46,306 nucleotides of DNA from Catajapyx aquilonaris (GCA_000934665.2 JYFJ02003109.1:1-46306); one strand, 5' to 3'. Positions 4,853-45,318 are shown, counted from the first letter of the stretch. A program made the numbers and translations. Notes: generated from the letters alone by a model not told the origin.

Positions 4853-4916
4853 ATGTCGTCGTTCCTCATGATTTTCTACGGGTGCCTTTTCTGCTCCATG
4901 CTACACAACACTGCAG
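4853..4916 (+). CDS. CCHa1: CCHa1 coding exon 1 (signal peptide)
   Basis: Kozak-like CACCATG start; hydrophobic MSSFLMIFYGCLFCSMLHNTA; phase-1 donor CAG|gtgaga compatible with exon 2. Confidence 0.78.
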
Positions 4917-7900
4917 GTGAGAACTCTTTTGCAAGTACGATTGTTTCAAATGCAATATGTGCACTTTTACAGGGTTTTTAATGTCAAATTCATTTCTATG
5001 CGAGGTATGACGTCTTGTTGGAACCTTTTTTGCATGTAAATTTGTCATTTTGTTGGGTTTGTTGCAAATAGGGACTTTGCAAGTGGGGAGGGAAACGCAC
5101 AGAGTTGACGCGAGATTCTGCACCTGTTGCTGTCGGTTGCTGTGTACAAGGATTCAAGTTGGAAATCTTTATTGCGGAGTTTCAGTGATAACAAACAATT
5201 AGGGTGCAATCACAGTTCAGTTCAGCAGATATTCTATTTTTCAATGGTAAGATGAATTAGCAGTGTATGGCTTTTCAAATGGTAGGTGTCTGCCTGTGCG
5301 TAACAATTAATATCAACTTTTGATGTAGCCTATCCCAGCAAATAATTTCAGTGACATCGTAGTCATTATTGTTATTAATCTCGGAGGTGTGGCATAAACT
5401 TGAAATTACCTTCCAAATCACCCACTACTGGTCGTCATGCCATACATTTCTTCATTATACAGAAAGGCATTGCTGCCCTTTGACAATAATTATGACAAAT
5501 TATAGGAATGGGTTTGCCAAAAAGGAGGTCACATTTGAAGCAAAAATTATTACCTGCCATACTTGCAATGTACGTTTTTGGCCGAATATGAAAATAGTGT
5601 TCCCAGTCCTGCAACAACCATAAAACCAACGTCAGCAACACTGCCGCACTGAAGCATTTAACCTGCCGGTTCCATCGTCTCATGTAACCAAATAATGTCA
5701 TCAAACATTCGCTTAAGCAGTAAAATAATACCGGCGCAAATCCCGCTTGAAAAAAACGCATTAAGTCATTAAGATTACAACCGCACTAAAAGTGGCCTTT
5801 AAAATGTTGCACTCAATGAATGTTAGCCTCCGCAGGTAAATCGAGCCTTGAAAAAATGTGCTCGACTTTTTTCCTGTAAAGTCTGAAAGAGCAGTCGTTT
5901 AGGAAGCCATTGTGTCACCTAGTTGAGACTTTTAATGGGATTGTAAGGTTGTAACGGAGGGTGTCTTGTTACGACAGCTGACCATGCAAAGCGACAAATG
6001 CGATAGGAATTAGCACTCTCTACTAAGGCTAAAAAGGGCATGTTTTATTCAGCGAGGGTTTCCCGTCAGGGCAAGCACTGTCATCATCACTTTGTAATTG
6101 GAGTGAATGCATACCGTATATTGGGTTATCTGGCTGGAAAGCAGCAAAAATCATTTGGGAACTGCAAAATTTGTGCCACCTTTACCGATCTAGCTGCTAC
6201 CAAATCGTTATACTATTAGCATAACCAAGAGCGACCCAAGAGCTTGCCCCTTTGACTCTACATTATTTTGGCCAAAAGGGTGACTTAAATCTTCTTCCTG
6301 AAAGCTACGAAATGTGAGACACGTGGGTGTTAGTGGAGCTATTAAGTTGGAAATAGAGGTCCATGAACATGTATCGGGCCATTGCTACATAGTGTGGAAT
6401 GCAATACATACCCTGCTGAATATTGCACAGATTTTACCTTGTGATGGAGCTCTCTGCGATTTTTCTTGCTGTTGTTGGGGGCATATAGTCATGTGTGTTC
6501 CTCCCAGAAAACACAAAAATAACAATAGTAAACATCAAGCCATTTTTTTGTGAATTCTGCCTCTGGTGCAAAAGTAAGCAAGGAAAACTACTAGTGCAAG
6601 TAACTTATAATATGGATTAATATTTTGAGCATCCTGATGAAAACCTAATCAAGATAGGATCCAATTGACATATGACTGAATTACCCTAACAGCTAACAGA
6701 TTAGAAAAAGAAAGGTCACTTATGGAGAAGTTTCACTGTCCATTTTGGATGGAGTAACTAATTGATGAATCTGTTTCAGTATACTTAATAGTAAATTACG
6801 CGAATGGCTCCAAAAGTATCATATTGCTACTTTATTCTAATTTTGACCCAATGTTAAATTTACGAAAGCTTTCTAAGAGTCACAGAACTGCGCCTGGTCC
6901 CACAGGACAACTGAGTGGTTGTTTGTGTGTTCCTAATATACTCGACCTTGCTGAAGGTAGAGGCGTGAATTTTTGTGAAACGATGCTGAACGTACTGGTA
7001 AGTTTCACGTAAAAAATGGAAGAGAATTATATTACCTTGAAATCTATAAAGGGTGTATCTGAACTCAGTGCCCCGACGTATATGACTGCCTTCCTAGCCA
7101 CCAGAGGATCAACTTATGTAGAGGAGTCATTATGTCTGGGCAGCCTCATTACTGAGATACACTCTTTAGCGATTTTTGCCTAATCGCTCCTTCTGACTTT
7201 TAAATAGAATTTTCTGGTGTAACTAGCCAAAGAGGCCTTACCACCTGTGGGCAACAAACCAACAAAGTCCCGCCCTCAGACCTTCCAGAGCCTTCTGACT
7301 GGGGGAGGGTTCGATGGGTGGCCTAACCGACAGGATATTTTGTACTACATGTTTGCGGCCAATTATCTCCGTAATGCGGCGGCCAAACATAATGACTCCT
7401 ATACTTAAATCGATCCTCTGGTGGCTAGGAAGGGAGTCATATACGTCGGGGCACTGAATTCAGATACACCCTGTATAGACACCTAAAGAAAATATTATTC
7501 AGGAGGTTGTGCGTATACTTGTCATGACTTTTCCGGGCAACATTGCTGTCGACATGTATTGGTGTAAGTGTCAATAATATTAATTAATTATTGAGATCAT
7601 TATGTTGTACTAAAATCTCCCGCCGCAAGTCAAAATGATATGCAGTTTACACATATGCACTTTTCCAACAACTGTCAGGAAAAAATGCTGCCGTTTGACC
7701 TGCCACCACTCGAGTTCAAGTGACCTTATCAACCACTAAATATACGACCCTATAATGAGATTTTCTCCTCTTTCTAGTGCACTATGCCAATTGTTTCTAA
7801 GTGCAACAGGAAAGGAAAGGAGTAGGGTTGAGAGGCATCGCGGAAAACGGGAGGGTGAGTAGTGGCCAGGGGCAGTGGCTGTGTCGCAAACGCAAGGCTG

Positions 7901-10900
7901 CAAGTATTGATCTTTTGGATTTCGTAATGACAGACTGCATGTGGCAGGGGAAGGGATATGCTGTACCAAACTAACCTAACCTAACCTTCCTTCCTTGCGG
8001 ATACAGAACTATCTTCAGCGGATACACGCCTATCCTTCAGCCTGCCTGCTCCGTGTTTGTGACACAGCTACTGCCCCCAGCCACCACCAACCGCCCCGGC
8101 CGTCGTCGGTGGCGGCGTGTTAACCTAGCAAACCTACTCTATCCGAAAATGAGGAATGCCGAAATAGGTTTTGAAATAGGTGGTCGGAGGATGTGACACC
8201 AGAGTGACGCTTATTTCGTGAGGAGCGGGTCAGGTCAACTGTGTGCCAGGGAAAGATCACGATGATGCGGTCGGGGGCAAGGGGGAACACAAGGTCGGTC
8301 TTACTGGCCTCTAATACTGTGCGGATGATAACCGGGAAAAAACGGGCGCACATTAATTGCGTGGTTCAGATTTGTGTTTCTCGCTGCGGCCGACCGGATT
8401 TAACGTCATAATAACTATGCAGCCTTGTGTGCCCATGCCTGATGCCGGCCAGGAAAGGCAGTGCGTATTACCATCTGGGAGCAAACCAATCCGCAAATAA
8501 ACCAATTAACTTCAAAATAAGGTATTTAATGCTAAAAATGGGTATGCTACTGTATGTAACAAAAAGGCAATGATCTTAAAATAAATCATTAACTGTATTC
8601 GACTCACTACATAATATTATGCAAAGGTATACCGTAGACTATGTGACATAGTGTACATCCGGATAGATCTTTTTCTGCATTCACTATTATATTCACTGAG
8701 GCTTCCAATAAACACTCAACTTCTCAGTGAGACTTTATATTTGACTGTGAGTAGTAGGCATACAGGCTACATTAGGCTACAGTCAGTACAGTGTAACATC
8801 AAAACATGCAGTGAAGCAAAATTAATCAAGAGATGTGCAAGTAAAGGTGAGCCCTCCCCCCTCCCCCCCCCCCATCCTTATCATCATGAAACCCACATAT
8901 GCCCTCCCCGCTCCCATCGTGTCATTATTACCCCCATTTCCACCCATCCTGAACTAGCGGTGACCCTGCTTTTCCTCACTAGTCTGCCGACGTGTGTGTT
9001 GTCTCGATTGTACCCACGTGATCACTAGTTCTCTCTTCATTGACAGCTTTCATATGTTATATCGTTTTGCAGAGTACTCCTGCTTTTCGTCCTGCATTTT
9101 GCCATTTATTACTATCGGCTTAAAATCGCCTAGAATTCCCGGAAGACCGTGAAAAAAAAAATACTGTCGAGTGCGCAAAGAGACGCCGTGACATTCATAA
9201 TATCCAATAAAATGCATTTTGTCCAAAGTGCATAATTATACTGTATAGCGTTTTGCCATGTGGCGGGAGATATGCTTCATACAAAATCTCAGAATAGGAA
9301 ACAACAAAGTAAATAAGACTAATGGCCGGTTTCACCGAGCCCGGTTTTGTTAAAACCCCCGGTTCTTTTGGAAAATTCCTATTTGCAGGGTTTTCCGAAA
9401 GATTCCGATCAAAACCGGACTCGGTGAAACCGGCCCTAAACAACATAAGGGACAGTTACGATTGGAAATGTGGCACTATCTGTCTCGCTTTTTTCTCCCT
9501 ACTTTCAGCAACCAGCCAGAAACTCAGCATGAGTGTATCAATTCAGAAAGAAATAATAATTGCTTGCAATATTCCTTATAGTTCAGCCAATGCCATTAAT
9601 CGCACGTTTAGACGAAGTGAAACAAAAATATATTATAAGGTTTGTGTAGCCTACCAGCTGAACTCGGGGTTTATTTCCGATTGTTCAATACCTTCTTGAA
9701 TACCATGACACTTCCAAGTACTTTTATAATGGGACCATAGTTTTTCCTACGGCACATAAAATGGCAAATATTTAAAAATGTGCCTAATGAGTCAACATCT
9801 TCGGCAGCAGATCAGAGGCGTACTATCACATTCCTCTGGGCGTGCAATACCACAATAGTGGACAACACACGGCACCAGTATCATTTTCCCCGAAGTGCAT
9901 GCTGGGATCGATTCACTGATACACATTAAACCATGTCGAACACTGCGTGTGTCTCCCAGTAAACCAATATTGGAGTGCCTCGTGACGCCTCTGAGACCTA
10001 CACACTACACTGGGAGTTTCAACTGCACTGAGCCTACAAACCTCATTTTTTTCTATTCGCCGAAAAATAAAAAAATAAACACAGTGAATGAATTATCATT
10101 GCTCCCAGCTCATGGAGCTCATGGATGCAAAGTGAGTTTAACAGTGTATTACTCACTTTGCATAATGTAGTCCATACTCTTTGCTTTTTCAGATAATATG
10201 AGCATATAAGTGATGGCCCCTTCCCCCTTATGATTTAGTAGTCTAATATGAAGACCAAGATGCAATAAGGGCCCATCTGTCAATTTTTACGGAAATGCTT
10301 TTATGGCATAAATTATGGTACTTCCTCTGGTGGATGTCCATCCGTATAAAATGCAAGAAGAGCCGAAATGTCACTAGTGACGCCTGAAAAAGGCTTCTAA
10401 CCATTGAAGAACCTAAACGCGATTTCTGGATAGCAGTGACAAACGTGATTGACACTAGAAAAGCGCGATTTTAATACACTACTAGTGACCCGGGATTTGA
10501 AAATAGCAGTGATTTTTAAGCGCGACGTGATTTTTGTCTAAGCGCTACTTCTAAAGGAGATGCGTTACTTTACGATTAGAACGTTCCCCTCTGAGGAGCA
10601 GTGGTAAACCCAGTGGAAATAAAGTAGACTTGTGAGTCTGTATGCCACCAAAAAATCTTTGACCTACGCCCTCGGGAAGTGGTCGAAAATGGCCGCTACT
10701 TTATAAGGTAGACCTAGGTGGTAAGGCATGGGAGACAAAAAAAAACATTAAATATTCAATTAAATATGTGTAATTACTCCGAGGCGAATACTATGTCTCC
10801 TGCATATCATAATAATTCATTAATTTTATCCTGAGACGGGTTTTTCTCCATATTTAAGCCAAATGAATGATACAATGCAATAAGGGCCCAATTGTGAGCA

Positions 10901-12244
10901 TTAAAAGTATTTAAATAAATTAAATATAAATTACATGGACATTTTTGAAAGTGCTGTCAGGTATTCATGTTGTACATATCTGTCATTAGGTTTAGAGCAC
11001 AATTGCCTACCATGAACAGAAACAGAAATAAATAGGGTTTTTTCGCTTCCTGGACATTTTTGAATTGTGGTCTTCACATTGCCTGCCAACAATGGATTTG
11101 AAAATAGGAAAAGGGCCATTCTTTCAAGTCAGATCCCTTATAAGTACGAATCCACTTTGGTCAACCAACTCGATAACTGAGAAATGTATGAGGTTGTGCA
11201 AGGCGTGGGTTGATATACGGAACACCCTGTATAATTATGCCAAGCATTTGACACAAAATACCTAGGAAATTATCATAGGAAGACATGACAACTCCGCGTC
11301 TTGCCAAACTTTTCATCGCCCTTGGTTATCGCGTTGAGTTGTCCGGAATGGGTAGCATTCAAGCAGGTTGATGGGTTCGATCAGCATTTGAACAGAAAAT
11401 GCACTCTGGTAGGCCCCATTTGAACATTCTGCTATAGTTGTAGGGTGGTCTCCCGGTTGAAGTATCCTATACAAAGTATAGGAAATTGCTCAAGTAGTTA
11501 AAGAGTTAACATTCTTCATGATGAGAAATATTGTAATTTCCAGGCATAGCATTGCGATTATCAGTAACTTACTACGTATTCCTCGAACATCCATACAATT
11601 TGTAATTTACCGTCATTAACATACGTAGTTGCGCTACACGGAGAAATGATTCTGGGTATTTTCCAAGTCAGTCTTACAAGTGGTTTGTCAGGAAATTATT
11701 AGAGTACTGTGCTTAATAAATATACAGTAATTTTACACCGGGTGTGTCACAATGGTTCCGACAACGTCCTATAGGGTGAACTTGTGCTGAGCACCAGCAG
11801 ATCACTGTAGTAGTGTAGTGTCATCTGGAATCTGCAAGTCTCGTTACCGATATAATGAGGCTTAAATGCAAGGAGTAACTGCCAAGAATTCCACTCCTTC
11901 CCAGTAACTTCGCATTTGGTTGAGAATATCTTTTAGCGTCACCATGAAAAATACTGCGCTCTTTGAGGGCGACACGGTGGCCGAGTGGTTAGCGCCGCAG
12001 CCTTCCACCCCTAAGGTCCCGAGCTCGATCCCCGGGTCGGACGGAGGATACTTATGTGAATAGAGTTTCGATGGGTTCTCTCCGTGTTCGCGTGGGTTTT
12101 CTCGGGGTTCTCCCGTTTCCTCCCACTATCAAAATCCATCACATTACAGGCAAATGATTAAAGTCGGGTATTCAAAAGATCTGATGATCCCCTAAGAGGC
12201 CCAAGGGGCCTATCACGGGGTATATATTATTATTATTATTATTA

Positions 12245-12304
<60 letters not shown>

Positions 12305-15300
12305 TACTGCGCTCTTTGAGTATGTGTATCGAGCAGACGCCGCGCCGGGACGATGGAACTGTCGTAGCTGATATTCGAAATGTACGGTAGAATATGGTAG
12401 GTTATAATTTAACATTTTGATAAATAATTATTTATCAAATGTTAAATTATATAGATATTAGATTATTAATTCTAATTAATTCTCTCGGTTACGAGGCTGC
12501 AGAGATAACATAACACATCTATACAAAATAACTCCCTGGTCCCCAGGAGGTCATCCTGGACGTTTGTCAAAATCATAATGAAACACCCTTTAGTTTATTA
12601 TTATTAGTTATCCGCGTGGGGGCGGGTGGCTTTCATACGGAAATGAGATGACGTTTTTAACGCAAATTCTTCATCCTAAATTTAAACCGCATTAACAAAT
12701 ATTTCCGACCAGAGACGAAATAAGCATGCCAGATCAGAGTTGGTGGGGGTGGCTAAAGTGAGATTTGTCGTCATGTCTGGTCCTCACTAGGGAATTAGTA
12801 GTGTGATAATGTGCCATCATTCCGTTGTGTTGCTTTTTTCAGGAGGTTTTAGGTGTCTAACTAGTTTTTACTTTACGAACGAGCCAATATTACATGCCCT
12901 ATAAACAGCAACTTCCTCGTGCGAAGGATCGCCTTTCTTTTTCCAGATGTGATACTGACTAGGTTGATATTCATGTGCCATATAATACATAGTAGTACGT
13001 CTGATAATAAAACGAACAAAGAATATTGCAATGAGTCCCTGTACGAGAAAAGCAAATCGAAAAATACACACTTGTCTTCATGAGCAAGTGGAAATCAGGC
13101 TCCTCAAGATCTGCACTTATGAGGATGTGAGCTAAATTCTGAAGCACAAGGTATGAACTAAGAATATACCAAATCTCTTTAGGTGCTCTTCAAACCTTAC
13201 TTCAGGCGATTCGAGAAGAAGGAGAGAGTCTGTGTGGAGTTTATAATTATTTGCTCCCTTATCCCGTAACAAATCGTACCCATGATATACGTAGGGCTAC
13301 TCTATCCTGTCAAGCAAAATCGATATGATATCAACGAAATCAATTTCGGCTACAATTTCCGAAAGTGTAACGTACAAACGGGAAACAAAGTCTTATATGG
13401 TGCCTATCTCAACACCTTTCTCTTCATAATAGGTATAAAGATCAATTACGAGGAAAGCAAAGAAAAATTCACACTGACCGGAAATCTTCCCTGTATGAGG
13501 TGGACGCTGCAATTATTATTCTCCCTCAGTTGTGGCTTCGTGCAATTTGTTATACGTAGTTATAGTGTATTGAAGAATACTAGGATGTTTCAATTGAAAT
13601 GACAGTTTTCGTTAGGTATTACTAGAAACTATTCTGCTTACTTTGAAATATTTACTTGTAGCAGGTGTCAAAAAAAATCAAAAAGTGGCTATTTCAATAT
13701 GGAACATCTTGTACTGGTTTTCTAAGTTGGAAACTCCAACTGTGGAACGGGACAAAACGTGATGGATGATTGTTGCAGGTGTCAACTTAGGAAGTGTAAT
13801 TATTTAGTGTTATTTTTTTGTTGGTTTCAGTAGGGTGAATAGCTAAATATGTTGAGAGGAAGACACTAGATGGCTGTCGTAGATGTGTTTCGGTACAAAT
13901 TCCCATCTCAATTTGCATCGAACAAGGTCTACAACAAGAACTCCACCGAAACGGGCAGGCTGACACCGCACTAGCTTTTCCAATTAGCTTAATTTTACGT
14001 TTGGCTGCTATTTGTCAGTTTACTTGCTTTCTGCAGTGCGAAGCACTGGTTCATTGGTTTAACAAAAAAAAGCGCCCTGGTCAGTTATTAATAACATATC
14101 CTATCACAGATATATACAGTATGTACCACGTGCTACATTTGAAAGAGTAGTCTACTATAATCAAAATGCAATTTAAAATAAAGACATAAAATGCAGAATT
14201 ATCACAGTCAAGTCATTTCGAGATATGAAGGTTGAAGTCTTTAAAAAACTATTTTGTAAAAGATGTTGACCACTATAATAATTATGCAGCCCCCTTTTTT
14301 AAATTTTGACCAAAGTGTGACTATTTTTAGGCCCATATAAATCAAGGTTTCATGCTATAGGCTACTGCCTCAACCAGCTACTTTAGGTCTGTCGCGTATT
14401 AGCTCGTAAATCCAGAACAAGTGGTTAATTCATATCATTCACATAACATCCATGACTAGATCTCAATTTATTATCTATCATGAAATCGGGCTCCTTACCC
14501 CAAACATGTCAGTCATGAGACCAACAGTTAATGGTTACTAAAATAAATTGATGTCACAAGTCAGCAGTTTATGTCAGTGTTGCTTTTTCACGCCGAATAC
14601 TGGAAACATTGTTCTGTGACATGTGTTATGGAGGATTCTCTCCTTTGAAGTGCTACCAGATGGAATACAAGCTAATTTCGAAATCTGAGATACGATCATG
14701 ATTCTACAATTATTATTTTATTCTGCAATTTCGTCAGAATATGAGTTACTAATAAAACATACAGGTATTTGTAAGCAGGGATGGAAAAAGAACCGCTTCT
14801 TGGAAGGAAGCGGTTCTTTTTTCCAACCCTGAACATGGAAAAAAGAACCGCTTCCTTCCAAGAAGCGGTTCTTTTTCCATCCCTGTTTGTAAGGCGTCTA
14901 CTGTTTTTGTGCACTTATTTATAGCGCAATATAAAATTCACAATTCCATCTACGAGATGAGCTCGTAGATGTTTGTTGGTTGTGCCAAAGCAACTAAGGC
15001 TATCTGGCAATAGTATAATAGTGGGTTTTCGGTAGTGGGAGGAAACGGGAGAACCCCGAGAAAACCCACGCAAACACTGCGAGAACCCATCGAAACTCTT
15101 TCCACATAAGTGGAGCTCGTAGATGAGCATGAGACTGAGATAGAGATTTTAGTCTTTATTCTGTTTGACAACCCGCTCAAAGCAGATAGTTATGAGCAAA
15201 ACAAGACCAAAGTCAAAATATTATTATACTTACGGATATCGATGATCACCTCTTCAACTAACATGTAGGCATACAATATAATTTCATCCGGCTTTCTTTC

Positions 15301-18300
15301 TTGCAGCTTCCTGTTCCAGATATGGTCACTCCTGCTGGGGAGGTAAGTACTATTTATTACAATATAGTAAATTACAACTATAAATACTTCCAGCACTTAT
15401 TGACGGAAAGTACAGTACAGTATACTGTAGTCTGTAGGATAAAAAATAGTAACAGCGACCCAGATATTTTATGCAACATACAATGATTGGATTAAGGGCC
15501 GGTTTCACCAAGCCCGGTTTAGGAAAATCCCTGCAAATAGAATAGGGATTTTCCGAAAGAACCGAGGTTTTATCACACCCGGGCTTGGTGAAACCGGCCC
15601 TAAGACGGACTGTTATAATATGAAATAAGATGCATAAGCCTATACCTTCTTCTAAGAAACAAGGTGCTACATGTAGTCATCGGGTTGCTATGCACATTTG
15701 AACACTGCGGTACTTTCCAATTTACCGAGAGGAAAATATGACAACCACCATCGAGAGCAGTGATTGCACAAGTAATAATTTGAAATGACAATAGTTTTTA
15801 CAAAAGCTTAGAACAATATATGGTGTTCGAATATGGATAACAGCTTGTTCAGCGCATCATTGACATGTTGTCGATGATGCATCTCATGAATAAGCCATAT
15901 TTAATTTGGAGACCAAAGTTCTAATATTAAAATATCGAATTTTTGGAATAGTTACGGAAAAATACAGCTACGACGTGGGTGTAGTCAGACTACTCCGGTC
16001 AAAATGTTCCCCACTTCTCTAAGAGCCTCTGAATGAGCCACTGCCCCATATAATCATTACCCAATATTACACATGCATTATAGTGACTGACAAGTGTAAT
16101 ATAATTATATGGTGGCGGTGATATGTTCACTGATGCTTTGTAAATCACTACCTTTAGGACCATTGGATCTCAGTTATTTATTGTTAAATTTTGTTTGATC
16201 CGTAAATTGAGTTAATTTTCACAAGTCACCATTCAACATGCACAAATCATGTTACAATAATAACGGGTACTCGGGAATGAAGGCCGCCACCACCTTTTCC
16301 CCCCTTGGAGGTTTTAATCACGTATGGAAATAATGTTCTTGCAAATTATGTTTTGGCTTTGTTTGACAAAAATGTAGGTGGAGTTAGTTAATTAAGAGAG
16401 GTGATCAATAATTTATGTTAGAGTTTGTGTACATGTACAGTAGGCTACAGTTCAGTACTTCATTTTGATTCTACTTGTATGTAGGCTACTAGTACATAAT
16501 GTACTGTACATTCACATAATTTATCTAGTGATAGTCCTTTGGATATAGTCCGATATTTTGCTTGGATTGTCATTTTTAAGGCTTCCCTGGATGATTTTTA
16601 ACAGGGATTGCGATGTTGCATACACTGTATAAATTTGCACTATTATTTTCAATGCTTACGTCACTTGGTTCGTCACTAACTACCAATTTTATAGGGTTGT
16701 TTGGTTATATTCTTCTTGCTGCTGTCGTTTTAATTTCCATCCACCTACTTTTTGTCGCCGATAAAGAAAATTTCCTATTCCACTGAATATACTAAACGGG
16801 TTCGTATCAGTTGAGAAAAGCTATGCGAGAGCCACGAGAGTCAATAACCCAATGGCGACTATACTCATGCTTGAGTCTGTTCTTTCTCTTGAATAGGATC
16901 CTCAGCCAGATTGGGGGAGATTGACCTGGTGGTCTCGCCTCAGACTCTCTTTTTTGAAATCCCAACCAAGGCGGTGAGGCATGAGATGCATTTTATGTGG
17001 CGACGAATTAGAGCTGGCGCCTGAAATCAACAGGTTTATGTCTCTTTCGGACAATATGTATCCTTTTAGTACCCCATTCGGCTTCCGTCATGGATCACCC
17101 TTCTCTAGATTACTGAACCCCACGACCACACACAGACTGACTCCGATAACGTCAAACTATAGACATTGTACCCAATTTTATTGCTCACCCCCCTCTCTCT
17201 TCACATTTGAGCCTAACGAAACTTACACAAAAACTAATCGAAGTAGGTCTATGCACATCTTTGTACTTGGAGAGTACTACCGTAGTACTAGTAGCTACAA
17301 TTGTACGACACGAGTATTTTTTATTTAAGAAATTCTGAAAAATTTCTTCATCTTGTGCTCCAAAACTTTGACTGCATACAACTTTAAAGGTTTGATCGTG
17401 GAATGTGTCCCCCAAACTCTCAGTAGCTCAGTGGTAGAGCACATGCTTCCCAAGTGGAACACACGGTCCTGGGTTCGATTCCCAGCGGGGAGTTGGAAGT
17501 CCAATCCTAGCTCAAACTTGCCGCGGTTTATTCATATTTGAAATTAGTAGGCCTATGGGGCGCAGGTTGTCCAATAGCTCAAACCAAGACCCACCCCCTC
17601 AGCAACATATCGGCGCATCACAATGTCAATTGCACCAACTAATAGCAATGAGATTTCAGCACAAATACTATAATGAAGTGTTCCCAATTGACTGCCGATG
17701 CAACATGTCATTGGTTTTCAGCTCACGGGAAACGCAGTGGAGGCAGCTTAGACGCCCCAGCACCGTCACGTCTGGAAAAACTCTTCGACGACGAACCCCG
17801 ATCTGCCATTACTACCGACACTGACGAGAGGATTGAAGACCCTGACACCGACCGGCTTGTGGATGACAGGTAAGTAACTTTGCTATGTCAATATGTGGGG
17901 AGAGTTGGGGAGAGAGTCAGGGTAAGCGCAGTTACCTGAATAACCTACCTTCATTATTTATGCGGGTTGCACGACTCAGTGATCTACTCAGGATTGAAAG
18001 GATGCTACTCATTGTTTAATTGTGACCAGAAGTTAATTACGTCCGTTACCTTTTGATTCGATTACCTTCCTTGGCTGGTGCAACCTGGCCTATGAGCTGC
18101 ACAACTGCCCATATGCCCATATATGAAACATAAGTAACAAACAGTGCTGGTGTTATCTAAGGGCTTTTACACTCGCATGATTGTAGCTTCTTTTTCAAAA
18201 CTCTCCCTGCTCAACTAATGTTTTCATCTAACAGTAGATGGTTGGTTCCAGCTGTCAATTAATGACCATTAGACATAAAATTTACTGATTGCAATTCCAC

Positions 18301-19099: not shown

Positions 19100-19180
<81 letters not shown>

Positions 19181-19269: not shown

Positions 19270-19397
19270 GCGAGCAAATAAGCCTGATAAATCTTGGCCC
19301 GCATAAAACATTATTATGAGTAGATTATACAGTACTACATTACACTGCATTTCTGGTTTTTCTTAATTCTGTCGGCAAATATTATTATTAATTTATA

Positions 19398-21675: not shown

Positions 21676-21679
<4 letters not shown>

Positions 21680-21751
<72 letters not shown>
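21680..21751. repeat. (GA)n microsatellite
   Basis: About 36 perfect units. Confidence 0.97.
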
Positions 21752-21753
<2 letters not shown>

Positions 21754-21820
21754 TGGAATGAACACTAACAGTAAGATGAATCACAAGACCTTTCCATAAT
21801 AATAATAGTCAGGACGTTAA

Positions 21821-22263: not shown

Positions 22264-22347
22264 TTAATTCCATGACTATTTTATGTTCAAGTCCCTGTAG
22301 CTCTGAAAATAAGGGCTGTACGTGGAAAAGGTACAGGAATTATTCTT

Positions 22348-22462
22348 TGGGGACCGTGGGAAACCACAGAAACCACGTTCAGGGTCGCCGGCCCTGGGAT
22401 TCGAACCCAGGACCTCCCGATTAGCCGGCGGACTCCCTATCCACTACACCAACCTGCTTCGG
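22348..22462 (-). mobile_element. tRNA-derived SINE, family A (3' part missing)
   Basis: CCGAAGCAGGTTGGTGTAGTGG...GGTTCGAATCCC; homologous to the copies at 30438 and 43583. Confidence 0.75.
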
Positions 22463-23480
22463 TTAAGACGCCTAATAGTAAGCAGAGACCACCTTATGAT
22501 CGAGAAATGACTCACCTCTTGTGACGAATATTGTTTTGGCTGCCCTCTGCATGTTTGCTCCCCCACGGGCGGGTTTTTGTGTTGATCCATGTTCTGAGAT
22601 GAGCAAGAGTTCGAAAATGCCAGTTCCGAGCTACAGGCTCCTTTGTCGAGTGAGCATTAGGCTACATTATTAGTATACAGGGTGTTTCAGAGTCGCGGGT
22701 CAAGCGTGCGTGAGGGGGTGGGGAAAAATCGTAGGTGGCGATAACCCCGGTGTGTTTTATAAAACAATTAGAAATACGGCAGTAATCAATTTATTTATTA
22801 CGGCCGTACGGCGTGACGTCACATCCTTTCTGTTCGAATTGACTGGCGCGGACTGGCAGGTGCAGCATGGGTTGAACCTGGTTGAACGGCTTTTTAGCCT
22901 TGCGGGTTGCACTGAAAAAGGCGCTCTCCTGCTATACCGGCAGGGTACTGTACACCCTACTGTACAGTAGTACACTATACACACAGGCTATGTGTGCCAA
23001 GGACATTCTGTGATTTGGGAGGGAAGTGCAAGGTGGCGGGCATATTTGGGAGGAAAAAGGCAGAAAGGCGAGAAAGGATAATGTACTATTTTCGCCAAAA
23101 TATTAATAATACAATGTCTGTACTTTGCTGTTGGACCCTTTCGCAAAAGACTTGAAATATTTGCGAAAAATGTTAATGAATTTGGAGACAAAATGTCTCC
23201 ACGTCACCACCGGAGGAAGAACTATTTGAAGGTCACCAGCCGAAGTTTAAGGGTCAAAACATGTGACCTTTCATACAGCCATACCTGTAGGGGTGTGGCG
23301 GGCAGTAGGAATGTTTCTCGAAATATGCGAAATTTACCCGGGATATTCCTCTGTTTCTGAACAAAAGAGCTAATGACTCTAAAAATTACGTAAAAATAGA
23401 AACAGAATAATTATTATATATTATATAATATATTATTATATATAGCTAATTTTATCGATTTTCTGATAATTTAATGATAA

Positions 23481-24792
23481 CACTATGCAACACGATATTT
23501 GTCCATGGAAATTCATTGCTATTTCCATGTTCCTTAGGTCACAAGTAACTCATAATGGGCATTCACTTTGTCTTTGATTTGTTTTTGACCTCGGGGCAGG
23601 CAAAAAACCAAAGTCCTCAAATATAGCAGTTTTTTCCCAATCAAGTGGGCCTAATTGTTGCTAAATCATCTCGGATTTTTCTGAAAATAATCACAGCTGT
23701 ACACACCTATGCCGCAACACTGCATATCAAGTTTCAGCCAAATTGTGAAATACCGTGGGGAGGGAAAATATCGTGAATTTTTGAAAATGAGGCCTTTTTT
23801 GGATAATTTTTTTCGGTTATTGGAAGTGGTCAAAACCCAATCAACATATACATCAAATGAAAGAGAAACGCTAGTAGAATGCACCTACGGAATATGTGTC
23901 TCTCGAGAATGCACCCAGAAAAACATGTATGGCATTCCATCAGTCACATGCTCAGTAACATGTCCAAGTGTTTAGACCCCACAAATTAGTGATGTATTTG
24001 CGTAAGAGCAGCCATATTTGGTGACAGGAGTTGTGACTCATACAAGATTCAATATGTTTAGTTTCAAGCCTGGGTCATGCATGGCTCGCGCGAAAATAAT
24101 AGATATGTTTGCCGAATTGCCACTATTTATTTTAATGGGGCCGAATTCTTGGACATGTGACTAGTCAGATATTAACGGGGTTATTCCAGACCATGTAGGT
24201 CCTTAAACCCCGGACCCCAGATAGGGCCTATATCATCACTCTAAGTCCCTTCCATCGTGGTCCGCCAGAGGCGGACCACCCGTTCGCTTCCGAATCGAAC
24301 CCAAGCCGTCATAGGGTGGACATGTGACTGATGAAATGCCACCATGTTTTTCTGAGTGCATTTTCTAAAAAGGCAAATTCCATAGACGCATTCTACTCGC
24401 GTGTCTCTTTCATTTGATGTATGTGACTATATGTTGATTGGGTTTTGACCACTTCCAATAACCGAAGAAATAAATAAATAAAAAAACAGTTTCAAAATTT
24501 CGCGATTTTTTCCCTCCCCACGGTATTTCGCAATTTGGCTCAAACTTGATATGCAGTGTTACGGCATAGGTGTGTACAGCTGTGATTATTTTCAGAAAAA
24601 TCTGAGATGGTCTAGCAACATTTAGGCCCGCTTGATTGGGATAAAGTGCTATATTTGAGGACTTTGGTTTTTTGCCTGCCCCGAGGTCAAAAACAAATCA
24701 AAGCCAAAATGAATGCCCATTATGAGTTACTTGTGACCTAAAGAACACGAATACGACGATGCATTTCCATGGACAAATAGTGTTGCATAGTG
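23481..24792. mobile_element. Large foldback DNA transposon with CACTA termini
   Basis: About 470-nt inverted arms (23481-23950 and 24321-24792); termini CACTATGCAACAC / GTGTTGCATAGTG; TAA on both flanks (3-nt TSD). Confidence 0.82.
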
Positions 24793-25660
24793 TAATTTTT
24801 AGAAACTGTCCTATGCAAATGGACCCATGGGCCCCGATACCCGGGGAACAGTGGTCCGGAAGTGATTGGGACCCCTAATTCACCAAGAAGTATATTTCAT
24901 TTTTATCCTACGTCTAACCCCTCTACATAAACAAGAAATGAATAAAAGGGACTTCTGTTACTGCAACCTGAGGACACTAGTGAAACATTTTCTCTCTCCG
25001 GAAAGTTGACCTTGTCCTCCCACATCTTTGGCCTGAGTTTGGCCGAGTTACCTAGGAGCCTCCTGAGTTTGGTGAGCCTGCGATGCTCCTTTGGCTTACA
25101 GCGAGGCTCAGAGCAGCAAGTGCATAATTTATGTGCCAAGTCATTTTGGATTGGACTTAGATTGTTTTCTGATTCCATGGTTCAATTTGTGAAAATTCAA
25201 ATGACTGTAAGAAAAATTATTGTACTGCTGCAATGATATGCTTTATACAAATACCACCCCATATTTGGCTCGTGATTTCGTCCAGAAAATCTTCCACTCC
25301 CAGGAGCACATTATTTGCTGAAACGAACCTTGCCGTACCTTCGTTGCCGTTTGTCTCCTCAATCACATGGTCCTCTCCATCACTCCTTCTTCTTCCTCCC
25401 CCGGAGCTCTCATGGGCGCATTTGAGGTCTGTTGTGGAGTATACTGTAGTAAATACGTTCTATGGACCCCTAGTTGAATGGAGTTTGTTGGAGAATAGTC
25501 CACAGGGAAATTAGTAATCCGATTTGTCGGGTAAGGAATCGATTCTTGCACGACCTTTGGGCACGCACGCATGTGTGTGTGGAGGTTAACACGCTTTATA
25601 CGTCAAGGGTAGTATAGGCTATACTTCAACACTGATGGGAACTTTAACAAAGGGTTGTAG

Positions 25661-25726
25661 TTTATTATTATCAGGAAGCTTGCATCGGGGCTGTACACAA
25701 ATGTGCTATTGACTGTGTCCTTTATT
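25661..25726 (-). promoter_or_regulatory. Candidate CCHa2 polyadenylation signals (two AATAAA)
   Basis: Plus-strand TTTATT at 25721-25726 and 25661-25666, about 430-490 nt downstream of the stop codon. Confidence 0.45.
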
Positions 25727-26154
25727 AGCAGTAGTGAGCATAAATTACATCCGAGTCCAATAAGGAAGAATAAAACAACGTGGCCATTGTTGCTACTCTG
25801 TACATTTTAGTCGACATAGATTGGTAACGTGAGAAATAAGATGAGTGAACACAATGGTAGCGACATCAAAGATTAGCAAAGCAGAATGACAACAATATTG
25901 TTCATTGTGTGAAGCAACCTGGCCTAGCATATGTACATTTCTCCAGCACGCATGCTCACTGTCAGAGCACATGACTCGGAGAAACATATGCGTAACTTTA
26001 TTTCCTACTCTAGGCGAGCTACCGAGTGCAATGATTGAAAAGAAAAAGGGGGTGCTCCTAGGTAATTCACCTATTCTTTCCCCATGAAAGTGAAGTTGGA
26101 TAATAAATTGAATACGTCAGCTCCCTTTTTTGTCGAAAACATCACGACATCCAG

Positions 26155-29100: not shown

Positions 29101-32100
29101 ACCATATTTCCCGTCCAGGTTTGCAAATGACGTCAGATCATTGTTTCCGTTGAACTTCAGCATGTGATTGACCTACTGACATTTTTCTGGAATGGTAGAT
29201 GGCGCATTCGCCTCACTGACGTGGCATGGCTGGAATTGTTTGGTTTTCTGATTATTCTTGTGTGCAGCGGATCTCGTAATGAGTTTGGACAGAAAGATCG
29301 CGACACCTGCTGAGAATTCTAACAATTCATTAAGGTCGGCTGGATGACGGAGCTTTTGCTATGGCTTAACTATACTGCCCACCAACAAGGTTCGTTAAGC
29401 AATGTCCTTTCCTCCTCCCACTACTCCTTCTCCAAAATACTTGGATTCCGTTCATGAGCCAAACTCGATTTCATTATTCTAATCTGGGGCTAAAGTGGAC
29501 AGACCCTCCTTCTAACTTAATTCCACTGTGCGTAGTGGAAGATAGGACTCCGGACATCCTGTCCCCCGCCGGGAATCGAACCCGGGACCTCCTATTGTGC
29601 TCTGCCACTGAGCTACGGGGGGTGTGGGCCATGAGCACCTTCCACATCGCTTGTCACAGTTGGACTTTTGCAATATTTTCATTCATATGCAATGAATGGA
29701 GTCCAAAATAAGGACAGACAAAACATGGACTCTTATTGGATCAAGCCTGTACAGATTACTTTGTACATTCAGGCACATATCCGATTGACTGATCGAACCC
29801 AGCTGGAGCTGTCTTACTAGGAAACGTTTCTCAAAGGAAAGGGATTTGTGAGATGGAATTGAGTCTGGCGTCATGAAATCGGATTATAAATGTGGTCATT
29901 AGCTGATTTCATTTAGGTATCGGTCGAAGATTCAACCCATATTTGTCCCAAGTGAGACGGGCAATTATGATGCCAAACAATAATATTACGGCCATTACTA
30001 AGAGTAACAACTTCATACATAGTACATAGTGGTAGCATGCAGTAATGCTGAAAAGTTTAATTTTACTCTCTATGAATGAGGTACCGTAGTTTATTATTTA
30101 TCAAGTGTAGCGGTATATTAAGTACTAATCGCGTCGGCAATAAAACACTCCCATTTCTGAACACGTACGGTAATGCTTTCATAATAATTATACTGTAGCT
30201 GCGGGCTACAAAGAATCTGCGAAACAATTATTCTGTTTGCTTCTGTTTCTGGCTCAAAAGTTCAATTACGTTTACCTCTGGAAAGTTTCATTGCATAATT
30301 TTGAATTAATCCCCACGAAATGCGTTCAATCCATAAGTCACTTTTGCTCTAGTGGAAGCCACCAGAAAATTAGTGCGAATTTACCACAATATAATTGATT
30401 ATTATTGTCTTTAGAAAATATATTATCAACAAGCAAACCGAAGCAGTGGTGGCGGAGGGGATATGGTATCCGACTGCTAATCGGGAGGTCCTGGGTTCGA
30501 ATCCCGGTGCCGGCAACTCTAACCGTGGTTTTCTGTGGTTTCCCACGGTTCCTCCAGGAGAATTCCGGAGTTGTTTCATAAACTAATAGGCCACAGCCGC
30601 CTCCTTCCTTTCCTATCCTATCCCAAAAAGCGCAGTAAAACCGAAACGAAGAGTTCCAGTCAAAACAAAAATTTCCCCCCTAAAGAGCCGCCCGCCGGCT
30701 GATAACGGGGTATGAATTGTTGAATTATTATTATATGCAACTCAATATATGAACCGAAATTCAATGAATCCTATCATTTCCTTGTGGCCACTAGATGATC
30801 ACGGAATTCAAAATGGTGTTTTTTTGTCGCGCGTGATGAGAGGGAAAGTCGTCGCAAGTAATACTAACTTTGATTTAGATGTTCTTCCAGGTCCCGGTGG
30901 AGTACAAAGTTTTGTTATTTCAGTTGGGAGTACTAGAGGGAGCGGGGTAAATGTTCAGCGGTATAAAACTTTATTTGTTGCTGCGATGGTCGAGGTTTTC
31001 AGTAAGGTAAGAAAGGCATCGCTAGAGAACAGAATCAACTCAATAATCGTGTTAAACGGCTCAATTGTTCAACGTCAGACAAATGCTGCAGACTGAAAAT
31101 AATTTATTGGTAGACAAAAATGGTCACTCATCGACAGTAAATCGATTTGGAAACGAGTTATTTTAAGATGTATACAGAAATCGAAGAATCAGCCAATCGA
31201 TGTGTAAGCGAGGGCACTGTCCGAGATATAAAATTATGGAACACTCTTCGAAAACTGAAAGTGCATAATTATAAACCCAAAAACATCTGGGATTTTCCAT
31301 TCAATACGCTGGTGACAAGGATTGACGTAAACAATGACTAATTGGAGTAATAACTCATAATCCGCGTGTGAGAAAGTATACAAATGCTGGAGTCAATTTT
31401 TTACGATTGGTATCGTCCTTCCAGAGAGATTCCATTAGCTAAAAAGCAGTGTGAACATCCATTGTGGTCGAAACACGTTCAGGCACGCATACCAGCCCCA
31501 ACAAGCAGCTCAAAGGACACATTCCGAGGCCGTAGATTATCGTGCCTTTTAGTGTTCAGTTGACGTAAGGGTCTAAGAGTGATCTGGTTTGATCTCGGAT
31601 TCGGTTGATCTGTTTCACCTTCCGCTTTGGTCAGCTAGGGATTGTTTTTCCCCCCTCATAAACATCCAAAAAGCCCCACAAAAATGACAGAATATGTCTA
31701 AAAATTCCCACAGGATAGCAATTGTCTCATTTGTTGGTAATTAACTCTGACAATAAAATTTGCTAATGCCTAATTAACGAGAGCTATTCCCATTTTTAAA
31801 AGCACCATAAGACCATTGATACTGAATAATATTGTTTATATCTTTTTAATGAAAGGCACGTCCTCATTACTTAACATGCATATTAGTCAGTATTGCAGTT
31901 GGTGCATCATTAAGCTGCATGTACTACTTATAATAAGTCTTTCTCAAGGCTAATATTCCTACACATGCTGCTGCTGCTGCTGGTGTTGGTGGTGGTGGTG
32001 GTGGTGTCTCTACGACGACTACCAAGTTACTACTTCCTAGATGCAAAGATTATTTCGCAATAAGCGAAAGTGGTGCTTCCTGTGTAACTGGCCGATCATT

Positions 32101-35100
32101 TCCAAAAATAATTCTTTCTTCTTCGTGGAATTCTCCACGATGATTTGAACGAGCCATTTGATATGGCTCCACCGCACCATCCAATAGAAAAAAGAGCCCG
32201 AGACCTACTTTGTCGAAACCAATCATCATTGACGACTCATCTTCAGACGTGGGAATGAGAGGTGACACCTCTGTTAACCCTCTGGTGATAACGTCATGAT
32301 GGGTACCCACTTTGTCTACCAATCAATAATTTATGTCATGCGAAACTACATCCAAGCCAAGTTACAGGTCACGCCACACTGTAAATTCAGGTAGCCTTTT
32401 TTTAAATACGTCATTTTGATAGCCTTCTCTCATGTGTATACGGATCCTTTATTGGGGAACCAATCCATTAATTTTATTTACGTACAATCAATGTACATAT
32501 TCACTGTATATCCTTCATTTACTGTATTATTTAAAAAGGAACTTACTGTCGAAAGTACAATCAAAGTCGAATATCTGAATGAGAAATGCTGGAAGCTTCT
32601 GAAATATATTTTAATTGCGCCTACCCATGATATACAAAGGGTGCTGACTATGCAAATCTTGCATAATGCCATTTAAGCACCGCGTGTTTTGCTGGGGATA
32701 ATATTTCAGATACATTGTTAGTGGGCTATATTTAGATTTTCCACGCCGCCTCACAATGGTTTGATATAACCACCAGAGTTGCCCCATTTACATGTCAGGG
32801 AAAGGTCCTCCTACTATAGCAATGCCAATGTATAGACTGCAGATACTTTATAGACTGCACAGAATGAGAACGTGCTATCGGGTTCAAATACTTTTGGCCA
32901 CTTTAGCCTGGTCTTGAAGCAACCCTTCACACACACACATACACACCTCCTTAATGTGGGGTCTGTGCGAATGGTTGCTTCTAGACCAGGATAAAGTGGC
33001 CAAAAGTATTTGAACCCGATAGTACAGACGTCAGGTCACACAAAAGGTAAAGCCAAACGTTTGGCTATCAATGCTTATTCAAAAAGTTTCACGTCAGGTT
33101 AGAATATGCAGACCTGTGTTACACAATCATGTATCTAGTAGAAATATCATCTAACGCCAAAGCCACCGAAACTTGCGATGATGTAATACTGGCATTATAA
33201 TAAGAACGAGTACAATTATGCGAGAACTCACAAGAAGATATAAACCACCACTTTGTCTAAGGTCCACTGTGTAGGTCACGACAAATGACAATTCCTCCAG
33301 TCCGGGTTATGCTAATGTATGATCACTGCTCAAGAGTGCAACCATCTTAATAATGAAGCAGTTAAGGAGAGGCGTGACTCTTTCCACCACATTTGGCTTC
33401 ATTTTGCATTCCTCCCTAGTTTCTCAAATTATCGTGCCGGCCCATGCAAATATCTCTATTGTGACAATGAACAAAGGATTCCAGCTGTCATTTTCTGTGG
33501 CATTTGCATATTTTGTTCCAAGGTGACTTAGAACTAACCTTCCTGTGACATGCTGCGTCATTCGTGTGTGTCTTTTATTCAATGTCCCCTTGATTACAAA
33601 AAGGGGGACCCAGATAGGCCTATTAATGTTGATTCAAACACTAACTCTGAAAGTAAGCAGGTAGTATATAGGAAGTAGGAAGTAGGCCCATACTGTAAGT
33701 ATTAATACTGACAGTACCAATTAGGTAAATATACGGTACACAAAGTGGTCCAATTGAAATATATTACGTATACAGGGTGGTCACGATTTCGTCTGCCAAA
33801 ATGATACGGATGGTAACGGATGAGCATGGAAGAAGCATGGTATGGGCCCGAAAATCCGGCGACGACGTAGACGTCGACGATGTCCAACCTGACAAGTATA
33901 GATACCCCCGTGCATCCCTGCATCGCTGGTTGCCGGGGTCAGGCAATGGTGTAGGAGTGCGAGCGCCTGGAACCGGCAACCAGCAATGCAGGCATGTACG
34001 GGGGTTTCCATACTTGTCAGGACGGACATCGTCGATGTCAAAGGTCGACATCTCCTAGACGTAACGTCGACGGCCTTTCAGGCCCATGCCATGCCTTTAC
34101 CATACGCACCCCCGTATTATTTTGGCAGACTAAGATATATAGATCTGCTTATCTTGAAAATAGCAGTTATTACCATTTTAAAATATCATTTATTACAAGA
34201 GAGACTGTTCGTTAAGGAGACGAACGTATGAGTCTAAATTTATACCAACCTCATTTTTGACAAAAATTTCCACTGCCAGCTTCCACAGGGAAAAAAACTT
34301 CTTTTCACCCTCCCTTAAATAAGTTTCGACCGGAACCATGATAGAATAAAGATGTTTTGAAAAGGCGTTGGTAACGACATAATTGTGATAAAATTGGGTC
34401 TAAAATAATGCCCTCTTTCTGCACAGGCACAAGACCACCACAATCTGCAATATGGTATTATCGTCTCTATAACGAGGTGAAATGTGGTTACGAGTAAAAC
34501 ACATTCGTAAAATGTTTGTAAAACTCGCCATTTGCCCTTGTGATCTACCTATTCAACACCGAGGGTTAGCCAAAATTAAGTCCAATGTCACATTTTCAAT
34601 TATGGCTTATCGTAAGGAAACGTAAGGATTGCATTAGTGTCGCAATTGTCCAACTCTAACCCAGTGAAAGCCTAAAAGGCGGGTAAGACTGGATTACCAT
34701 TAGAGGAAAGTCAAACTGTGAAATCTGTGCTAAAACCTTTCCCGACTCGTCCTGATTCAATTAATTAATGACCTGACGCCCGTTGTCTGACTAAGGGATG
34801 CTGTCCCTTTCCACAAGCATTATTTCTAAGCTGCTGTAACACAAAGCCGGAGTTAATGATTCACGTAACGAGAGAGCGTCCAAGCGCCAATTTAGTGTAT
34901 GTCCAGTGGAACCTAATATACAGCATTTGACTACTTGTCGCCATGTAAATGACCTATGCAGTACGGTACACTAAACACTGAGTATGCTGTTACTGTTTGT
35001 TTTCACTCGAATCGCCAATTAAGCGTTCGTATTATAATATGTAAATTAATTTTGAGGGCCGGCCATCATGCAACAACAAACTGTAATATGAAGCTGTGTT

Positions 35101-38100: not shown

Positions 38101-39026
38101 AAAAAGTAAGATAATATCCGTCAATCTGTGGACTGACTTTGTGACAAGTTAATGCTGTCACAAAGTCACCCCGCAAAAGTACGAAATTCATCTAACACCC
38201 TCGTATCTTCTATACAAATCAAGTTCAATCTTGCATAATATTTTGTCATTTCTTAGCCAATGAATTTGTCTTCAAAATAAGTTACATGTTTTACTCTCAT
38301 CGCAATTATGGCGGTCGCTGTGAGGGAAAGTAATCGGAAGAGGACAAGAGGTTCCAACAATCCTCGCAGTTTGCAAACTGGGAATGTGACTGCCAACAAT
38401 ACAAGAGATGTAGGAGCTTTCCAAGCTAGCTCATAGGTAGCACAACATACGTAGCCATCTACTGGCGCTGGTTTCAGTCAAAAGGTCAAAATAATAGTGG
38501 CGCGAGTATTGAAAAACTGATTGGTCACCTTACGGTAGGTTTAGTTTTCGATCCTACCTGTTACAACAAGCTGCTTATTACAATAACTCTTTCATCTCAT
38601 TTTAAAAATATATCGCAGGCTTTACCCCCCACAGTATAAACACTATCCAGGTCCCATATGGGATCTACCTCTTAACACATACGAGCAGTTAGTCAAATCC
38701 ATAAGCAAAAACCAGACTATTGCACCCCCACACTTCGCTTGCGCAATCGGCCCCTTTTGTTAGCACCAACAATCAAGGATTTGGCTCTTAATCTCGTCAG
38801 ATCTGCCTCGAGGCAAATCAACCCCTAGTTCATAAAGGACTGTTTGGGATAATCCCTGCTTGGTACCCTGTCAAATACTGGTTTCGGCTCAACTCTTGGT
38901 GGGAAATGAAGCAAATTGAGATGAATAGAGACAGACAACCACGTGCACGTCCCTACCTGAAGCAAGATGTAGCGTCAGACCAAAGCTGAGCAGGAAAAGA
39001 ACTAGAGGGAAGCTTGAAGAGGCCAT
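26155..39026 (-). CDS. CCHa2: CCHamide-2 prepropeptide, complement(join(26155..26184,27015..27262,38957..39026)), 115 aa
   Basis: Three exons (348 nt; intron phases 1,0) give MASSSFPLVLFLLSFGLTLHLASG-GCSAFGHSCFGAH-GKR-GESAAAAMGPP...KLSPFVREWLLSLKHNRA*. The peptide differs by one residue from the widespread insect CCHa2 GCSAFGHSCFGGH. Confidence 0.92.
27015..27262 (-). CDS. CCHa2: CCHa2 coding exon 2 (mature peptide, GKR, propeptide)
   Basis: Acceptor ccgtcctttcttcctgcag|, donor TGG|gtgagt; lies within ORF 26955..27383. Confidence 0.95.
29561..29622 (-). mobile_element. tRNA-like SINE head, family D
   Basis: CCCCCGTAGCTCAGTGGCAGAGCAC...GGTTCGATTCCCGGCGGGGG; anticodon arm largely deleted. Confidence 0.55.
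30438..30735 (+). mobile_element. tRNA-derived SINE, family A
   Basis: B-box GGTTCGAATCCC; body GTGGTTTCCCACGG...AGGCCACAGCCGCCTCCTTCC; short (ATT)n tail. Confidence 0.78.
32875..33022. mobile_element. Palindromic MITE, family E, copy 1
   Basis: About 52-nt arms CTATCGGGTTCAAATACTTTTGGCCACTTTA...; homologous to the copies at 40105 and 42721. Confidence 0.82.
33773..34131. mobile_element. Degraded GC-rich foldback element (CAGGGTG left end, Tc1/mariner-like)
   Basis: TA|CAGGGTGG left end; 33790-33945 is imperfectly reverse-complementary to 33965-34130. Confidence 0.6.
37596..38535. mobile_element. Non-autonomous TA-flanked DNA transposon with internal TGTCACAAAGTCA repeats
   Basis: TA|CGGTAAGATGA ... 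TCACCTTACGG|TA; five copies of a TGACTTTGTGACA motif in both orientations (about 37619, 37782, 37803, 38134, 38156). Confidence 0.5.
38957..39026 (-). CDS. CCHa2: CCHa2 coding exon 1 (signal peptide)
   Basis: AAGATGG start; hydrophobic signal-like MASSSFPLVLFLLSFGLTLHLAS; phase-1 donor CAG|gtaggg. Confidence 0.85.
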
Positions 39027-45303: not shown

Positions 45304-45318
45304 TCATCACGCAGCGTC

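Follow-up and report, generated by a model that had tools for sequence, protein, structure and literature searches.

A CCHamide-1-type and a CCHamide-2-type gene lie tail to tail in a genomic stretch of Catajapyx aquilonaris, probably as old paralogues of local origin

Did the two CCHamide genes of arthropods arise side by side, and have they stayed neighbours since? The question is raised by a stretch of 46,306 nucleotides (nt) of DNA from Catajapyx aquilonaris (GCA_000934665.2, JYFJ02003109.1:1-46306; the whole stretch is hereafter called the window), which carries a CCHamide-1-type (CCHa1-type) gene on the plus strand and a CCHamide-2-type (CCHa2-type) gene on the minus strand. CCHamide-1 and CCHamide-2 are well-studied gut-brain peptides with roles in feeding, insulin signalling and growth, and act on separate receptors. 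In our analysis, the window probably contains two old paralogous CCHamide genes in convergent orientation, which arose by local duplication and are still linked, the 3' end of the plus-strand gene having been mis-modelled in an earlier note on the same DNA.

A six-frame motif scan of the whole window placed the CCHamide core in two positions and no others, one in each gene. The strict form of the core (C-x2-[FY]-GH-x-C-[WFY]-G), found twice here, occurred in none of 300 windows simulated under a first-order Markov model; the loose form (GH-x-C-x-G) is not rare, simulated windows carrying 0.21 matches on average and 5 of 200 having two or more. The two genes lie tail to tail (Table 1), with coding ends separated by 6.3-8.3 kb depending on the model adopted for the plus-strand gene. 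The convergent orientation described in the earlier note is real in the assembled stretch, the spacer being free of N: the sole N of the window stands at 1260, and none lies between the two CCHamide genes. A Pfam scan of the long open reading frames (ORFs) of the spacer found no unrelated Pfam-bearing ORF between them, and only repeats are present, namely the tail of a short interspersed nuclear element (SINE; 22370-22463), a (GA)36 repeat (21680-21751) and an element resembling a miniature inverted-repeat transposable element (MITE; 23496-24779). Such SINE, MITE and microsatellite repeats are abundant throughout the window, whose G+C content is about 41%.

Table 1. Positions of the predicted features of the two CCHamide genes, counted from the first nucleotide of the window. 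Donor ranks refer to all GT sites of the respective strand.
Feature	Position	Strand	Description
CCHa1-type coding exon 1	4853-4916	+	ATG at 4853; phase-1 donor CAG/GTGAGA, rank 7/2641
CCHa1-type intron 1	4917-15306	+	10,390 nt, phase 1; predicted at signal/mature-peptide junction
CCHa1-type exon 2	15307-15342	+	completes Ala, then SCSRYGHSCWG; phase-1 donor GAG/GTAAGT, rank 2/2641
CCHa1-type exon 3	17722-17869	+	completes Ala, then HGKRSGG..., acidic spacer, ...RLVDD; phase-2 donor CAG/GTAAGT, rank 1/2641
Last exon of the earlier note (disfavoured)	19192-19269	+	AVPYGQ...SGDK; TAG at 19267-19269; good acceptor at 19191/19192
Candidate last coding exon, CCHa1-type	19826-19844	+	acceptor tcatttcag/A at 19825/19826; TGA at 19842-19844
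Spacer between coding ends	19845-26154		N-free, without Pfam-bearing long ORF; repeats
CCHa2-type exon 3	26184-26155	-	LLSLKHNRA; TAA at 26157-26155
CCHa2-type exon 2	27262-27015	-	248 nt; phase-0 donor TGG/GTGAGT
CCHa2-type intron 1	38956-27263	-	11,694 nt, phase 1; predicted at signal/mature-peptide junction
CCHa2-type coding exon 1	39026-38957	-	ATG at 39026, good context; phase-1 donor CAG/GTAGGG, rank 12/2637

Each gene has a phase-1 intron of more than 10 kb at the predicted junction between signal and mature peptide, and the lengths previously given for the two introns (10,390 and 11,694 nt) are exact. The codon split by intron 1 is in both genes that of the residue two before the first Cys. 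Of the two converging genes that the earlier note had taken to be complete, the one on the minus strand has a model that is in frame, whereas neither the completeness of the plus-strand gene nor its stop at 19269 could be upheld, the last exon given for it being off frame. The further suggestion that the genes may share regulation is without support. The promoters lie about 34 kb apart, face each other and drive convergent transcription; judged by the poly(A) signals recovered, the two transcripts probably end several kb from each other.

The minus-strand gene yields a model of 115 residues that is in frame throughout. Its first coding exon encodes a 23-residue signal-peptide-like segment whose core is hydrophobic. 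It ranked first among 158 first-exon candidates; this ranking applied an ad hoc hydrophobicity-plus-donor score to combinations of an ATG with a phase-1 donor. A TATA-like sequence (TTTATAT, 39114-39108) accompanies the exon. The second exon reads G-GCSAFGHSCFGAH-GKR followed by a spacer and ...LSPFVREW, with GGCSAFGHSCFGAHGKR contained in a single open frame (27262-27213, minus strand). The CCHamide-2 hallmark, GC-[QAS]-AFGHSC-[YF]-GGH followed by GKR (hallmark sequences as given by Li et al., 2013), is matched within this one exon by GCSAFGHSCFGAHGKR, which is identical at 12 of 13 positions and differs in having Ala instead of Gly at position 12. Intron 2 measures 830 nt, and AATAAA signals follow the stop at 26002, 25726 and 25666. 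When the 2637 GT sites of the minus strand and the 2641 of the plus strand were ranked with a simple donor matrix, the two donors of this gene came 12th and 26th on their strand. An internal consensus donor (GAG/GTGAGT at 27212/27211, minus strand) just after the GKR ranks higher (2/2637), but its phase 1 does not fit the phase-0 last exon; the internal site may be cryptic or serve alternative splicing. A short palindromic MITE-like repeat occurs three times in this part of the window (32872-33025, 40102-40255 and 42704-42879; 82-94% identity), with one copy in intron 1 of the CCHa2-type gene and two upstream of the gene.

The homology of this gene to known CCHa2 extends over the whole precursor and takes in SPF[LV]R[QE]W near the C-terminus. 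A phmmer search with the 82-residue CCHa2-type exon against 1.84 billion representatives returned eight matches at E ≤ 1e-3. With five of them, all single-copy CCHa2-type precursors, the alignment spans residues 1-82 (E 7e-6 to 7.5e-4), and two are multi-copy CCHamide-like precursors; the remaining match, a bacterial PEGA-domain protein, is evidently spurious. Among matches over the full exon, the nearest are of termite type. The precursor of Zootermopsis nevadensis (XP_021940632.1) is 44% identical over all 82 residues, with the peptide and the P-F-x-R-x-W motif invariant in the alignment, and its ...RQW/FQALRH aligns where exon 3 of the window gene begins with LLSLKH; by eye, this third exon also resembles the ...MDWLLSAHR of Folsomia. 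The CCHa2-type exon is moreover present in 10 metagenome contigs. In a termite-like one (L004) the acceptor (...tgtag/GT GGC TGT), the donor (CAG TGG/gtaaga) and the exon length of 248 nt reproduce the boundaries seen in the window, and in a second (L010) the position and phase of the acceptor do so, indicating that the introns around the CCHa2 peptide exon are conserved. Given the intact frame, the match to termite CCHa2 and the shared intron positions, the minus-strand model of the earlier note (ATG at 39026, stop at 26155) is right. A name in the Atlas output, Pfam PF27941 CCHa1_2 (rank 5, score 0.83), serves as a lead only. Two proteins encountered in this work (P0121 and P0122) each carry five copies of KRGCSQFGGSCFGAHGKR, a CCHamide-like sequence in which Gly replaces the His of the GH pair; in the compared literature CCHamide precursors are single-copy, unlike these two.

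The plus-strand gene has one intron more in its peptide-coding part. Its first coding exon provides a signal-peptide-like segment of 21 residues after the ATG, and ranked first among 112 first-exon candidates under the same score. The peptide itself is split: AHGKR begins at 17722, 2.4 kb downstream of SCSRYGHSCWG, the intervening intron 2 measuring 2,379 nt and including a SINE head resembling a glycine transfer RNA (tRNA-Gly) at 17417-17493. Given the predicted splice 15342^17722, the resulting SCSRYGHSCWG/AHGKR agrees with the CCHamide-1 hallmark SC-x-x-YGHSCWGAH followed by GKR. A word-indexed protein search with exon 3 gave no match at E ≤ 0.01, and in such a search with the CCHa2-type exon no candidate had a word in common with the query. 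The SINE copy of intron 2 lies 230 nt upstream of exon 3.

The 3' end is where the model of this gene had to be revised. The stop codon reported at 19269 exists as a TAG, but its exon is off by one base from the consensus donor at 17869/17870: joined to the acceptor at 19191/19192, this donor leads into the +1 frame, which ends in ...SWPA and a TAA at 19303-19305. The frame read previously needs instead the donor CTT/GTGGAT at 17858/17859, which scores -3.0 bits versus 8.7 bits for the consensus donor. Since the phase-2 donor at 17869 puts 19192 off by one base, the exon of the earlier note is disfavoured, and from the splice phases the gene more likely ends with the exon at 19826-19844, or with another exon. 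The former emerged from a scan of the plus strand between 17.9 and 26.2 kb for C-terminal motifs, which gave one match of interest, RRWLLH. The first base of this candidate exon completes AGA (Arg) and is followed by R-W-L-L-H and a stop, in a phase that fits the donor at 17869. The motif resembles ...REW/LLSLKH of the minus-strand gene; by eye it also recalls the ...MDWLLSAHR found in Folsomia and, in polyneopteran CCHa1, ...LRVYKIMNH. As a third option, read-through past 17869 would add a single Arg before a TAA at 17871-17873, and give a short complete precursor. A perfect (ATA)26 microsatellite (19101-19178) lies directly upstream of the acceptor at 19191/19192; its complement, a perfect (TAT)27 (12225-12306), is found in intron 1 of the same gene.

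As for the identity and age of the two genes, by-eye counts against the ancestral pterygote peptides given by Bläser and Predel gave 11 of 13 identities to CCHa1 and 8 of 13 to CCHa2 for the plus-strand peptide, and the reverse tendency for the minus-strand peptide (8/13 and 12/13, respectively); the two window peptides are identical to each other at 9 of 13 positions. Each peptide is closer to its own orthologue type than to its neighbour, and the assignment of the genes to CCHamide-1 and CCHamide-2 in the earlier note stands. The GKRSG(G) that follows the plus-strand peptide is also that of cockroach, termite and Drosophila CCHa1. Between the genes, the signal exons share 6 of 17 residues (E 0.095), the precursors outside the peptide are not alignable by eye, and a repeat search over the window found no inverted repeat linking the two genes at the DNA level. 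By this peptide comparison and the lack of such a DNA-level repeat, the CCHa1-type and CCHa2-type genes are old paralogues and not a recent copy pair. The exact window peptides appeared in no main text searched, nor in a supplement that treats about 200 species of Polyneoptera.

Comparison with known CCHamide systems places the minus-strand gene close to insect CCHa2 (Zootermopsis XP_021940632.1; Cryptotermes LOC111871277), with which it shares the predicted signal peptide, GCSAFGHSCFG-x-H and GKR, a variable spacer, the C-terminal L-[ST]-P-F-[LV]-R-[QE]-W and two intron positions, one of phase 1 directly preceding the peptide and one of phase 0 directly following the Trp. It differs in having AH instead of GH at the end of the peptide, an ending also found in Folsomia candida and decapods, and in having no Lys-Arg or Lys-Pro before Gly-Cys. 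Folsomia candida (Thiel et al., supplement) combines an AH-amide end with a WLLS tail, as does the minus-strand gene. The plus-strand gene shares with insect CCHa1 (ancestral GSCLSYGHSCWGAH-amide; Drosophila NP_001097784.1; Cryptotermes LOC111871276) the SC-xx-YGHSCWGAH and GKRSG(G) after what is predicted to be the signal peptide, the two Cys residues and an acidic spacer past the cleavage site. The window peptide has Ser-Arg at positions 3-4, where insect CCHa1 has Leu-Ser or Leu-Glu; the predicted precursor is much shorter, at about 83-120 residues depending on the 3' model versus 115-241 in Polyneoptera, and the C-terminal RWFLSKL and KLRVYKIM were not found on the plus strand from 15.3 to 27 kb, where there is at best a reduced RRWLLH tail. 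Two paralogues also exist outside insects, in the decapod CCHamides I and II (SCSQFGHSCFGAH-amide and GGCLNYGHSCLGAH-amide), which likewise have SCS- and GGC- starts and AH-amide ends, but whose core residues do not correspond one-to-one with those of the window peptides.

The exon-intron plan of the two genes fits a common origin. The adjacent pair shares a phase-1 intron in the codon two before the first Cys, and because this position and phase are shared and the genes adjoin, we infer a local, possibly inverted, duplication of an ancestral CCHamide gene. A linked convergent pair with an identical first-intron position would be direct structural evidence for local duplication, and the original inverted duplication may plausibly survive at this locus, as the earlier note suggested. 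For another neuropeptide family with small paralogues a local duplication has been proposed; no such statement was found for CCHamides. A search of open-access paper texts (supplements at large lying outside it) likewise found no description of CCHa1-CCHa2 adjacency or synteny, and a preprint on Aedes CCHamide is silent on chromosomes, exons, introns and duplication. In NCBI annotation, consecutive gene identifiers usually belong to neighbouring genes. In Cryptotermes secundus, CCHa1 is LOC111871276 and CCHa2 LOC111871277 (Thiel et al., supplement), and these identifiers by themselves hint that the two genes are neighbours there too. Flanks of up to 10 kb around the CCHa2-type exon of the 10 metagenome loci contained no CCHa1 exon or motif, but the last exon of CCHa2 itself was not found there either, which makes the result uninformative.

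A bolder proposal is that the convergent pair is what survives of one local inverted duplication from which the two-ligand CCHamide system arose, and that it is conserved between this lineage and termites. We regard this as tentative, and on balance doubtful. Were it true, and were the lineage to lie outside Polyneoptera or Pterygota, the duplication would predate the 'early insect lineage' to which the literature dates it. The AH-amide end and WLLS tail of the minus-strand gene, collembolan-like and unlike those of about 200 polyneopterans, would fit such a placement of the lineage.

Several points weigh against the reading of an old, locally duplicated and still linked pair with a revised 3' end. 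All splice junctions and both first exons are predictions made from the genomic sequence. No Pfam family was recovered for the CCHamide exons, with a library that has no CCHamide model and that returned none for the Zootermopsis control either. At the 3' end, the frame that we disfavour is acidic (8 of 25 residues are D or E, binomial p ~1e-4, compared with 14 of 48 in exon 3), and this composition, set against the splice phase, could reflect a one-base assembly error or another gene structure. The RRWLLH exon came from scanning for the motif post hoc and its polypyrimidine tract is weak, and sites of the RRWLLH type occurred in 74 of 2000 simulated regions, in a null test itself defined post hoc; the exon is the best current candidate, not an established one. 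A regular-expression search of the plus strand from 15.3 to 27 kb for RW[FY]LSK and [KN][LM]R[VIL][FY]K[IL][ML], the patterns of RWFLSKL and KLRVYKIM, found neither; these motifs are documented for Polyneoptera only and may not define the CCHa1 family at large. With respect to linkage, CCHa1 of D. melanogaster is listed in a gene-model note beside Npc2b and foxo, not beside CCHa2, and the gene identifiers of CCHamide1 and CCHamide2 in the shrimp L. vannamei are about 7,000 apart. In two termite-like metagenome contigs (L003 and L004), the 10 kb downstream of the CCHa2-type exon contain no CCHa1 exon, but they do not contain the last CCHa2 exon either and are accordingly uninformative.

The Drosophila neighbours and the shrimp identifiers also speak for the rival that survives best, in which the genes became neighbours by secondary rearrangement, whether or not the first duplication was local, so that their tail-to-tail order is a lineage-specific state and not a relic of an inverted duplication. 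The lack of a DNA-level trace of an inverted duplication in the window agrees with it, as does the lack of any description of linkage in the open-access literature searched. Set against this are the common position and phase of intron 1, the consecutive identifiers in Cryptotermes secundus, which suggest neighbours in a second lineage, and the fact that a chance juxtaposition of the family's only two members within 7 kb is improbable; we therefore consider such a rearrangement unlikely.

A second rival concerns the plus-strand gene alone, which might be a decaying or truncated copy devoid of a proper 3' exon, leaving only the minus-strand gene functional. The out-of-frame last exon of the earlier note and the absence of the polyneopteran C-terminal motifs would fit, and loss of CCHa1 has been reported in some lineages (Ensifera, for example). 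The gene nevertheless retains its predicted signal peptide, its two Cys residues, the GKR site and three consensus donors of top rank, together with a phase-compatible candidate terminal exon that is short and bears a family-like motif, and even read-through would yield a complete, if short, precursor with its end at 17873, which makes decay quite improbable. An assembly artefact, in the form of a chimeric join between 19.3 and 26.1 kb, is very improbable: the (ATA)26 and (GA)36 repeats, the SINE and the MITE with its 300-nt arms can mislead assemblers, but the spacer has neither N nor gap, and the consecutive termite identifiers point to real linkage elsewhere. Finally, a recent lineage-specific duplication that mimics CCHa1 and CCHa2, of a kind with the two CCHamide-1 genes of Strigamia or the duplicated CCHa2 of Leptinotarsa, is barely credible in view of the low mutual identity of the peptides (9/13, versus 11/13 and 12/13 to the ancestral insect types), the poorly matching signal exons and otherwise unalignable precursors, the extra intron inside the plus-strand peptide and the absence of a nucleotide-level repeat between the genes.

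Both precursors would be processed as the family literature describes. Both show the features of a prepropeptide, that is, a signal-like N-terminus, two Cys, Gly-Lys-Arg, a spacer and a C-terminal motif. The signal peptide of exon 1 would target each precursor to the secretory pathway, where cleavage after the signal peptide and then at the KR site, followed by trimming and by amidation through the Gly, would release the peptide, which a Cys-Cys bridge would cyclise. The product would be a C-terminally amidated peptide of 13-14 residues acting on its own G-protein-coupled receptor of the bombesin/endothelin-related type. The predicted mature peptides are SCSRYGHSCWGAH-amide for the plus-strand gene and GCSAFGHSCFGAH-amide for the minus-strand gene. 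As genes, the two are otherwise ordinary family members, and their linkage is of modest evolutionary interest; the pair offers a simple marker of microsynteny, and scoring it in the genomes of other arthropods could date the duplication. The practical value lies in the corrected gene model, with the minus-strand gene right and the 3' end of the plus-strand gene provisionally revised.

Two tRNA-like sequences on the plus strand (17417-17493 and 30443-30515) matched the Rfam tRNA family at 39 and 32 bits, the first being called tRNA-Gly(TCC) by ARAGORN, and Rfam gave nothing else over the window. Repeated tails occur at 22370-22463, 43788-43881 and 30450-30552, and taken with them the two sequences resemble copies of a tRNA-derived SINE. 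The MITE-like element of the spacer consists of a core of about 700 nt and, on its flanks, inverted arms that total about 300 nt and are 90-92% complementary. Of the 39 long ORFs of the window, 38 had no Pfam family. The other is a gag ORF of the Pao/BEL retrotransposon type (45295-46119, plus strand; Pfam DUF7041, E 9e-34). A large protein collection contains 616 relatives, about 45-55% identical, of which the only named one is from a sea cucumber. The ORF lies towards the end of the window, in a last 2 kb that are rich in G+C.

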